Source: Octopus vulgaris
Lineage: Eukaryota
Assembly: GCA_951406725.2 (NCBI GenBank)
Contig: OX597828.1
Coordinates: forward strand, 54,932,001 to 54,996,000
DNA: 64,000 bases
Direction of reading: 5' to 3'
Within the stretch, counting starts at the first letter, position 1; the number at the start of each line of letters is the position of its first letter. The notes beneath the pieces were generated by a model. That model saw nothing but the letters and a program-made list of their open reading frames with translations. It was not told the origin of the DNA and made no database searches. A program made the translations under genes and the position numbers. Positions 1-3,373 of this stretch are shown piece by piece.

Positions 1-119
1 CAAGAGGACAGTCATCGCCAGGAAGTTTGCAATCAGGACAGCAACCATCGAATGCCATGCGACAAATTCCACAATTATCATCATTGGCAATCCATCGCCA
101 TGTGGCTACAGCTGTCCAG
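1..119 (-). CDS. ANAPC11: ANAPC11 (APC11 RING-H2 subunit) coding exon 3, runs off the window edge
   Basis: Minus strand ttgtttcag|C TGG ACA GCT... translates [39 protein letters not shown], matching APC11 (human [39 protein letters not shown]). Confidence 0.97.
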
Positions 120-924
120 CTGAAACAATGTGAAGGATCAGAAATCTATCAATAATATTTACATGAATCAGAAGAGTGTGTGTTTGTGTGTGTCTTTCTC
201 TATATTTGTCCCCCACCACTCTTTGACAACCTGTGTTGGGGTATTTATGCCTCTGCAACTTAGCAGTTTAGCAAAAGAAATTAATAGAATAAGTACCAGT
301 TTTAACCCTTTCGTTACCAACCTGGCTGAAACCGGCTCTGGCTCAGTATACCAGCCTGTGGGTGCAATAAAATGAGCTCATAGGCACAATTGCACCTGCG
401 GGCAGGGTTTCCCCACCCTTGATTTAATAGAATCTATTTCACATGGTCTGTTATTGATATCTGTTACTGTGAATTTACTTCTTACAAAATCCATCTTTTC
501 TGTCAGCACACCTGTGATTCCACTTCATTTCTCTTTCTCAATGTGTGTTGATGAAAGAAGTAAACAATGAGCAAACCAGAAAACTAGTTCTTTCTAATAA
601 AAATAACAGCAATCGCTTGGAACTCAAGAGCTATGATTTGGAAATCAAGTACCACAACCATCCAGCTATTTCTTTTCAACTCTCTTAACCACAGACCTTA
701 GCAGAAACAAAAGACACACAGACTGCAACCAGGAAAAAAATATGACACTTCACATAGTTGTAGCCTACAATAAAGATGCCACATATTAACATTGTAAATT
801 GGAACTTACAAGTTGATCCTATGTCTACCAGAGAGGACGGTCACAGTACTTACATGATTAATTGATTGAACGAGGAAGAGAAGTGACATTCACATTTTTC
901 TATCAGCCTCCCCTGGCACGTAAA

Positions 925-1650
925 AAGCTCTATCTGTACGTGGCCAATACCAGTGCCGCCTTGACTGGCTTCCGTGCCAGTGGCATGTGAAAAGCCCCAA
1001 CCGATCGTGGTCGTTGCCAGCCTCCCCTGGCACATAAAAAGCACCCACTACACTCATGGAGTGGTTGGCGTTAGGAAGGGCATCCACTGTAGAAACACTG
1101 CCAGATCAGACTGGAGGCTGGTGCAACCTCCTGGCTTCGCAGACCCCAGTCAAACTGTCCAATCCATGCTAGCATGGAAAACGGACGTTAAACGATGATG
1201 ATGATGATTTAACGTTAGTTTTTCCATGCTGACATGAGTTGGATAGTTTGACAGGAGCTGACCAGCTGAGGGGTCATTCAGGCCCCCTGTCTGTTTGGCA
1301 TGGTTTCTACAGCTGGATGCCCTTCCTAATGCCGTCCACTTCACAGAGTGTACTGGGTACTTTTACGCAGCACTGGCATGGGTGCTTTTTACATGGCACC
1401 AGCACCTACAAGCCTGTGAGATTAGGGATACTCAGCTGAAGAGGATTGCAGGGGACGAGCCTGTATGCAAGGACAACTACTTACTTAGCTTCACATGTCT
1501 TTTCAAGCACAACAAACCGCCAGGGGTCTCGGTCCCCTGAAATCCCTTCTGTGAGTTCTAACGTCTGTAAATCCTTTCTCACCACTTTGTCCCACGTCTT
1601 CCTGGGTCTACGCCTTCTATATGTTCCCACTCCAATTATAGATCAGCATC
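925..1650. mobile_element. Two tail-to-tail copies of an abundant LINE-3'-end/SINE-like repeat with (GAT)n tail (family 3)
   Basis: Motif ggttggcgttaggaagggcatccagctgtagaaa..catgctagcatggaaa..cgttaaacgatgatgat on + (925-1208) and - (1205-1650). Further copies near 5420, 8230, 9340, 15330, 18450, 29280, 30050, 34270, 34925, 37200, 38980, 47000, 47680, 52170, 54470, 61630, 62228. Confidence 0.85.
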
Positions 1651-1829
1651 TCTAATGTTCATCAATAAAGCGAAATAACTCCAACCAGAATTTAAATGTC
1701 ATGTAGTCAGAATTGGTATACCTGAATCTTACCTCTTGGCTGTAGCACACGGGACAGAGAAACTTTAGAAATAAAAAAAAATCCTTTTGTGATCAGGAAA
1801 CCATTCTTTCTTACCAAACTGCTACTCAC

Positions 1830-1830
1830 C
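1830..1830 (-). CDS. ANAPC11: ANAPC11 single-nucleotide exon 2 (G; middle base of Ser7 codon A|G|C)
   Basis: Minus strand atttcttttctgtattacag|G|gtgagt: pyrimidine tract, CAG acceptor, one base, then a consensus donor. Supplies exactly the 1 nt needed to join exon 1 (phase 1) to exon 3 (phase 2). Confidence 0.88.
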
Positions 1831-3022
1831 CTGTAATACAGAAAAGAAATTTCATAATCATAGATGACAATCAAAGGAAAGTATGACTTAATGTTTGAAT
1901 GATAGGATAGGTTAATATACATTGATACAGGAATGGTAGAGGAGAGAAAGTGCACATTTGAATGACCAAGAGAAAATACATTAAAAAATATTTATTTTCA
2001 ATCAATGTATGTATTGATGTGGTATTGGAATAAAATAACAATGTATACAATTTATATGAAAAGGTATTAAATGTCTTTTTTTTTTTTTTTTTTTTGGTGC
2101 AAGAGAAACTCCTTTTTAGATCCTTTGTGCATTAACAACATAGCCTGCTCTGAATGACATCAGCGGACCATCAGACACCAGTGTTTTGGCACAATTTTGC
2201 CCCATTTCCGGGAAAAGTGAAAAATGAAGGTGGGGGAAATTGAAATTTGAAAATGCGATTTTTAAAAATTTTTTTCCAGAATCGGATCTTCCATTACCAA
2301 AAACGTGGGATTCCGTAAAAAAAATCTATATATATCCATTTTACCGGAAGTTATGACGGAAAAATCAGATCTTGTGAATTTTCCGAAAGTCCCCCTGCCC
2401 AGGGTCGTGGGTGCTCATTTTTTTTTTTTTCATATTCATTTTCTAAATACTTGTTAATACCCACCAGGCAGGGTTTCATTTTTTTTGTTCCCGGGTGAAG
2501 ATTTTTATATTGACCGGATTTTTGTTTTGTTTTCGTTAACGGGTGAGGATCTTTATATTGAAAATTCCCTCCAACAAATGCACCATGGTAGAGGCATTTA
2601 GAAGAATGATAGTATTTAATTAAGGTCACCGAGTGTATAACGAAATCAGAAGCTGTGGATAAAACTGGCAGAAAATATAAAAGTGCAAAAAAAGAGTTTG
2701 AACGGTTGACAGCAAATGAGACACAAATCTCTTCAGCGGAAACAGAAAAGTGTCTTGAAGGGAGTAGAGACAAGTGGATGTGCAAAAGAAACCCTAATCC
2801 TTGTGAAACATGATAAATGTGAACGAAAATCAGAATTTAGGATCAGAGAGAAAAAAATTCAATAAAAAGTGAAGAATCTGATTCATTATAATTCTTCTTC
2901 TTTACGCAATATTTCCAACTCTGGGCTTCTAAATGTAAATTCATTTGTCCAATACAAATGCCACAGTGTACCATATCTTCATCTATTTCTATAAAATAAA
3001 TGAAATAAAAGGAAATCCTTAC

Positions 3023-3041
3023 TTTTTACTTTCACCTTCAT
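3023..3041 (-). CDS. ANAPC11: ANAPC11 coding exon 1 (MKVKVK + A)
   Basis: ATG AAG GTG AAA GTA AAA A|gtaagg; MKVKVK matches the APC11 N-terminus (human MKVKIK). Confidence 0.93.
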
Positions 3042-3059
3042 CTTTTTTAACTCATGCAG

Positions 3060-3275
3060 CCCGCCATTGTTATCAGAATCAGTTATAAAAACAAATCGTA
3101 GTTGCGTATCTCCAAACAAAACTAGACATATTTATATATATACGTTCAGTATTAATTTTAATATAATCACACATTTAAATAGTATATTAAAAATAACGAC
3201 ATTAAACTAGAAAGTAAAATTTTAATACTAAACTAAATATAAACATTTCTCCTGAAATCTGTAAAAATGGCGGTT
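3060..3275. promoter_or_regulatory. Putative bidirectional promoter between ANAPC11 and DIS3L
   Basis: About 200 bp very AT-rich spacer bounded by outward-facing YY1-like ATGGCGG motifs (minus 3061-3070, plus 3264-3273); genes are divergent. Confidence 0.6.
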
Positions 3276-3373
3276 TTTATTTTTGTTTTCATAAAAATTG
3301 TTTGAAAGTTTGTGATTTTGACTTCGTCTTCCACCGCTGCTGGATTATTTAATTATTTAGGTATTTGATACAG
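3255..3373 (+). other. DIS3L: Putative non-coding first exon of DIS3L
   Basis: Candidate donors tag|gtattt (3360/3361) and cag|gtactt (3373/3374). The ATG exon has its own acceptor at 7521, so an upstream UTR exon is required. Boundaries uncertain. Confidence 0.4.

Follow-up and report, generated by a model that had tools for sequence, protein, structure and literature searches.

A probable one-nucleotide exon in APC11 of Octopus vulgaris at the coding base of the plant APC11 micro-exon

Within the window, the whole stretch of 64,000 nucleotides of Octopus vulgaris DNA analyzed here, the base G1830 on the minus strand appears to be a one-base spliceosomal exon of the APC11 gene, putatively constitutive and orthologous to the one-base exon of plant APC11, with both flanking introns already present in the animal-plant ancestor; we assign this reading a probability of roughly 0.8. 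That the exon itself is real in this genome we regard as close to certain, and its shared ancestry with the plant exon as highly probable. The original prediction, made from the sequence alone, had read this base as a single-nucleotide exon and, provided that the codon position matches that in Arabidopsis, had considered its structure either ancestral to plants and animals or convergent. The exon is borne out by a spliced contig from sequencing run X5 and by the conserved gene structure in relatives, and ancestry is favored over convergence.

Results

The octopus gene and its reading frame

All of the predicted coordinates were upheld when the sequence was re-read on the minus strand, and exon 4 was located outside the window:

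3023..3041, minus strand: coding exon 1, 19 nt, codons 1-6 and the first base of codon 7, followed by GT
1831..3022, minus strand: intron 1, 1192 nt, phase 1, GT-AG, U2-type donor
1831..1850, minus strand: pyrimidine tract and CAG acceptor of the one-nucleotide exon, acceptor score 11.4
1830, minus strand: one-nucleotide exon G, coding nt 20, the second base of the Ser codon 7
1824..1829, minus strand: consensus donor GTGAGT of intron 2, donor score 8.9
120..1829, minus strand: intron 2, 1710 nt, phase 2, GT-AG
1..119, minus strand: exon 3, 119 nt following CAG, from the third base of codon 7 through the first of codon 47
L002:6157-6042 (G000:C15:54928142-54928257): exon 4, 116 nt including the stop, 3743 nt beyond the end of the window

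The coding exons of APC11 thus listed measure 19, 1, 119 and 116 nt. As had been predicted, joining exon 1 directly to exon 3 leaves the coding sequence one base short, at 254 nt, and codon 11 then reads as a stop; inclusion of G1830 restores the frame (255 nt, first stop at codon 85), giving 84 codons, the same length as human APC11 (84 amino acids). The encoded product is a RING-H2 protein similar to solved APC11, in agreement with its assignment to APC11/ANAPC11; the translation of exon 3 matches residues 8-46 of human APC11 with an E value of 1.7e-20, PF12861 was found on homologues, and the nearest proteins, among those that are named, are molluscan. The genome (2.8 Gb, 227 contigs) contains a single match to APC11 exon 3, and a second APC11 copy that could supply the G was not found in it. 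A potential upstream ORF of six codons (window 3067-3047, minus strand) stops 5 nt short of the start codon of APC11. Both introns contain high-copy interspersed repeats (window 221-440, 881-1650 and 2201-2640), with very high depth in all four sequencing runs.

With approximate consensus splice-site weights, G1830 scored 20.3 and ranked first among 140 frame-restoring AG..GT candidates as well as among the 10 one-base candidates, the runner-up of which scored 5.1. Counting both strands, the window has 446 AG-N-GT sites, and G1830 alone among them attains this score, which none of 2000 resamplings of the intron span reached. The same weights placed its acceptor above that of exon 3 (9.2). G1830 therefore lies between a canonical AG and a canonical GT whose splice signals are usable, as is required of a one-base spliceosomal exon. 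Candidate micro-exons of 7 and 4 nt had lower scores and would add residues absent from APC11, and an AG lying in frame 26 nt upstream of exon 3 was rejected by hand, as its use introduces an in-frame TGA. A second donor lies 16 nt past the G1830 acceptor (window 1830-1815, minus strand), which keeps the frame length and has the second-best score; a micro-exon extended by this means to 16 nt was rejected on account of an in-frame stop, and use of this donor might possibly generate a poison isoform.

APC11 loci in other genomes

A metagenome scan returned at least 588 pattern matches with 476 confirmed loci, the best 80 of which were compared; this set is biased toward animals and plants, includes duplicates from one species and contains one unplaced locus, L081, while no fungal APC11 locus was found among these best 80 of 476. 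The original prediction had proposed to map intron positions around codon 7 and to look for AG-N-GT, and this pattern was indeed present in 26 of the best 80 loci. In each of the 26, an AG-N-GT, N being G or A, lies between a phase-1 donor that follows nt 19 and a phase-2 acceptor that precedes nt 21; they comprise 12 animal loci, some of which are duplicates, 13 plant loci and the unplaced eukaryote L081. The animal loci include a bivalve-like (L008) and a gastropod-like (L011) sequence, L016 and L035, three coral-like loci with the base A (L027, L029, L030), and five loci of an unplaced invertebrate group (L049, L051, L052, L055, L057).

Elsewhere among the best 80 of the 476 loci, a phase-2 acceptor with no exon 1 on the contig was found in 16, a phase-1 acceptor only in 13, which are mostly insect-like (12 of these with exon 1), and a phase-2 intron only in a single locus, L086; 21 were contiguous, being intronless or transcripts, two (L012 and L076) were unclassed, and one, L026, is described below. 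In the gastropod-like L012 (positions 1-63) exon 3 is preceded by sequence with neither an AG in any phase nor an exon 1. An intron after nt 139 was present in 53 of 79 loci from this set, both plant and animal. Within the unplaced invertebrate group, six of eight loci compared, a count that includes the query L052 and L057, retain an island that ends in AG-G-GT; the second introns of this group measure about 340 to 1410 nt. The island was absent, among seven aligned loci, from L047, L053 and L054, where the upstream sequence extends over 711 nt in L053 and only 361 and 372 nt in the other two. In L049, L051 and L055 the conserved AG-G-GT site was not the top-scoring candidate. The unplaced L081 (positions 1311-1566) has the full 19+1+119 layout with introns of about 37, 35 and 45 nt, and it comes nearest to Echinamoeba and to lycophytes, each at 83%. 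It carries GTATCCTT 4 nt inside its intron 1, and a putative glycosyltransferase-like ORF is arranged head to head with its APC11. Searches of viral and prokaryotic collections gave weak partial matches only (0, 2, 1 and 1 loci), which were set aside.

Comparison with the plant exon

In Arabidopsis, A333 within a 422-nt span was established by substitution as a constitutive 1-nt exon of APC11 (Guo and Liu, 2015; PMC4674806). In our Arabidopsis-type locus L080, the 19-nt exon 1 matches the published forward primer exactly and is followed by a 332-nt intron, an A and an 89-nt intron, in agreement with the 422-nt span, with A333 and with the primer flanks (PMC4674806). Since L080 reproduces the published span and flanks, the plant exon falls on coding nt 20, in the middle of codon 7, precisely where the window has its own, and the common codon position that the original prediction had left as a condition is thereby confirmed. 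The land-plant APC11 exon is cluster 1 of Yu et al. (2022; PMC8831610), and the octopus base has the same placement, at nt 20, with a 19-nt exon preceding it and a phase-2 acceptor following. That study states that the exon "evolved in early plants", an origin that is contradicted by the animal loci unless these are convergent. The octopus and plant exons share the gene, the coding base, the phase-1 intron before and the phase-2 intron after it, and the 119-nt exon 3; in addition, both are needed for the frame and are missed or bent by gene models. They differ in the base itself, which is G (Ser) in the window versus A in plants and corals, in the length of the flanking introns (1.2 and 1.7 kb versus 332 and 89 nt in the Arabidopsis-type locus), and in intron 1, which is U2-type in the window versus U12-like in plants.

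U12-type introns have the consensus donor RTATCCTT and the branch site TTCCTTRAY. Examples are given in PMC7367187. When intron 1 was tested in seven plant loci (L060, L066, L078, L080, L087, L059 and L071), it started with GTATCCTT in six of them, and six of the seven also had a branch-like motif with 8-9 of 9 matches located 40-49 nt before the one-base exon, compared to a background of 50 in 1769. A distance of 40-49 nt is unusually large for such a branch site. The branch match of L080 was just 6/9, and its A at -44 is the branch A marked by Guo and Liu (PMC4674806). Judged by these motifs, plant intron 1 looks U12-type; the main text of PMC8831610 (Yu et al., 2022) does not contain the term "U12". 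In animals, on the other hand, intron 1 donors are U2-type, and intron 1 of the window, with the donor GTAAGGAT and a best branch match of 7/9, does not qualify as U12-type. The 7/9 match, at -41, was considered as a U12 relic and rejected, being within the background (397 of 1769). PMC7367187 describes conversion from U12 to U2 as one-way, and U12 introns as subject to loss or conversion and not to gain; an old intron 1 is therefore the simpler reading.

That the animal one-base exon is real but independent of the plant one, the result of parallel intron gain at the same two sites, seems improbable to us. Parallel gain would agree with the different class of intron 1 in the two kingdoms and with the lack, by eye, of intronic similarity across kingdoms beyond the splice signals. 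It would also suit the data of Yu et al. (2022), who in the available text recovered the exon in land plants and report a single further cluster in common with Chlorella (PMC8831610), and the gap between the kingdoms is sampled here by one unplaced locus. However, two gains at adjacent bases would be needed, in a gene whose nt-139 intron the two kingdoms likewise have in common, and so unusual a structure would have to arise twice; furthermore, the reported fate of U12 introns speaks against their gain, and L081 has the same 37+1+35 layout. Taken from these alignments, ancestry is favored over parallel gain by three shared intron positions and by the mixed pattern of loss.

Transcript and DNA contigs

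Contigs of four sequencing runs, of which X5 and X13 are presumed (as a guess) to be RNA and X15 and X16 are DNA, were compared with window positions 1-3300; such contigs drop rare splice variants. The extra G expected at the mRNA junction was present in a spliced X5 contig, that is in one of the two presumed RNA runs. This contig (636 nt, depth 95) covers 3022-3046 and joins 119 to 3022, and X5 record 25 covers 1-119 with one difference. The joint omits 2902 nt, one base fewer than the 2903 nt that a direct join would omit, and therefore the spliced product contains the extra G. For G1830, the extra base in the X5 joint and the need of the frame, which otherwise stops at codon 11, coincide. 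The X13 contigs cover exon 3, and no joint was seen among the X13 records listed.

It is very unlikely, in our estimation, that position 1830 contains no exon and that a single 2902-nt intron with non-canonical TA..AG or GT..CA ends leaves an intron-derived G in the mRNA. The X5 joint does agree with such cuts letter for letter: on the gene strand the skipped ends read TA..AG, or when shifted GT..CA or AG..TC, and none of these is a canonical single intron. Because both neighboring intron bases are G, the mRNA of this species alone does not separate the possible origins of the extra base. No splicing intermediate was seen in the X5 and X13 contigs, which have depth 0 at 1761-1870, a hole that in itself proves nothing. 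Nevertheless, such an intron would have to harbor a near-perfect acceptor and donor pair, and in the plant orthologue the exon has been proven via base substitution (PMC4674806). Moreover, orthologues supply an A, which would be impossible by a shifted cut. In L035 the best candidate is an A that gives Lys, where a shifted site would give Arg, and the protein P0313, identical to L035 over exon 3 (39/39), carries Lys7; a mature coral mRNA with Gln7 was not found among the 24 entries matching W[IV]GVATW. Since the coral base A is not obtainable by any shifted cut, the sequences support the lone base as mRNA template in those orthologues that carry A.

An assembly that lost one G at the splice junction, or a second gene copy that makes the mRNA, can practically be dismissed: although the DNA runs lack base-by-base cover of exon 3 and its acceptor (depth 0 in bin 1-110), X15 and X16 contigs span exon 1 and 1599-2306, including position 1830, at about 95% identity to the window in the intron, with neither a gap at 3023-3027, where the original prediction had allowed for an assembly indel, nor a change in 1790-1877 among the differences listed, the genome holds one match only, and the identical one-base gap recurs in 12 other animal loci among the best 80 of 476.

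Partly spliced records and gene models

Several records bear on the order of intron removal. The coral-like L026 equals L030 minus exactly its 533-nt intron 2, with introns 1 and 3 retained and no mismatch over 585 nt; it could be partly spliced RNA, the alternative being an intron-less allele. The RefSeq protein P0255 of Orbicella begins within intron 1, continues across the lone A and enters exon 3; in Populus, protein P0385, compared with L060, shows an equivalent read-through from intron 1 via the one-base exon into exon 3. The models of Exaiptasia (X1) and Pocillopora verrucosa appear to resemble the read-through of P0255. L086 fits either a loss of intron 1 or an intermediate from which intron 1 was removed first. 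In the coral-like L022 (positions 420-541) intron 2 is present and intron 3 absent, which may represent either a partly spliced form or loss of intron 3.

The expectation that gene predictors would miss the exon held for the most part, with the exception of some mollusc records (Pecten P0295, Mya/Dreissena P0287), which start correctly and have 84 amino acids. A direct join of exon 1 and exon 3, read out of frame, was found in 16 of 401 proteins, including those of two Lytechinus sea urchins, Pocillopora damicornis, the streptophyte alga Closterium and the lycophyte Diphasiastrum. The RefSeq proteins P0010 (Glandiceps) and P0261 (Acropora) have one additional residue at codon 7, for which a cryptic donor 4 nt into intron 1 that rescues the frame would account.

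Discussion

Established splicing biology suggests that exon definition would be impossible on one base, and since two spliceosomes cannot occupy sites one base apart, the introns on either side of G1830 would have to be spliced sequentially. Intron 2 would probably be removed first, with the strong donor behind the G joining this base to exon 3, and intron 1 would then end at the ordinary CAG|G acceptor of a 120-nt exon. Whichever intron is removed first, a strong site would remain (AAG|GTGAGT or CAG|G). As far as can be read from their sequences, the records of coral and poplar favor intron 2 first, and the same order is cited by Guo and Liu for potato invertase (PMC4674806). Skipping of the exon leads to a stop at codon 11 in the only gene copy and would therefore be selected against. 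As skipping destroys the protein, the structure can vanish only by exact loss of one or both introns, a view that would fit the insects, with intron 1 only, L086, with intron 2 only, and the intronless loci. Intron 1 probably started out as U12-type, a state that plants would have retained, with conversion to U2-type in the animal lineage.

A more comprehensive scenario, to which we give slightly better than even odds, holds that the 1-nt exon has been kept since the plant-animal ancestor, probably the last eukaryotic common ancestor (LECA), at first behind a minor-spliceosome intron; that the downstream intron is removed first; that intron 1, being slow and retainable, could set the dose of APC11; and that reciprocal losses mimic one-base sliding. 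A regulatory role of slow intron 1 removal is speculation.

Adjacent acceptors and donors within a long intron, with two-step removal, are familiar from recursive splice sites (AG|GT, zero-length exons) and from fungal stwintrons. The neural microexons of animals, of 3-27 nt, are mostly frame-preserving and alternatively spliced, and the single-base exon in placozoan mitochondrial cox1 is flanked by organellar introns. Recursive splicing, which is cited in PMC4674806, and stwintrons leave no base in the mRNA, whereas G1830 is kept and required for the frame; a recursive zero-nucleotide site was accordingly rejected for the window, where the arrangement is AG-G-GT and the spliced contig has one extra base. 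Like the neural microexons, introduced in the available text of PMC8831610, the window exon is tiny, internal and found in an animal, but it is 1 nt long, shifts the frame if skipped and belongs to a housekeeping cell-cycle gene. The placozoan exon (PMC5436844; PMC6067683, from the parts available) is also a one-base exon of an animal, but mitochondrial and not spliceosomal. Closer parallels are the 1-nt exons of plant VPS55 (PMC8831610) and of Fusarium CYP621A (PMC12940212), which in the available texts likewise consist of one base between AG and GT and, as stated for CYP621A, supply the middle of a codon; they reside in other genes, each within one kingdom, and neither is reported there as cross-kingdom. 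Annotated 1-bp exons are mentioned without experimental proof in PMC3064661. The original prediction knew of no description in molluscs, and in the literature searched, made up mostly of papers outside subscription, we found neither a 1-nt exon of animal APC11 nor a cross-kingdom comparison of the APC11 micro-exon; an animal 1-nt exon was likewise absent from the available parts of PMC9341508, PMC8632122 and PMC12409088.

Rather than an oddity of plants, the APC11 exon was probably inherited from a very early eukaryote, which would shift a curiosity published for plants back to the common root of plants and animals. Animals would thereby gain a one-base exon that is nuclear and backed by RNA as well as comparative evidence, of a kind not encountered for animals in the literature searched, and with it a natural, essential substrate on which the animal spliceosome faces, between introns of kilobase size, an exon below the size that exon definition requires. 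The gene would also offer a clean case in which reciprocal intron loss mimics one-base intron sliding, as well as a U12-to-U2 conversion adjoining a one-base exon. At the level of annotation, the one-base exon would account for the wrong APC11 N-termini in many coral, mollusc, echinoderm and plant gene models.
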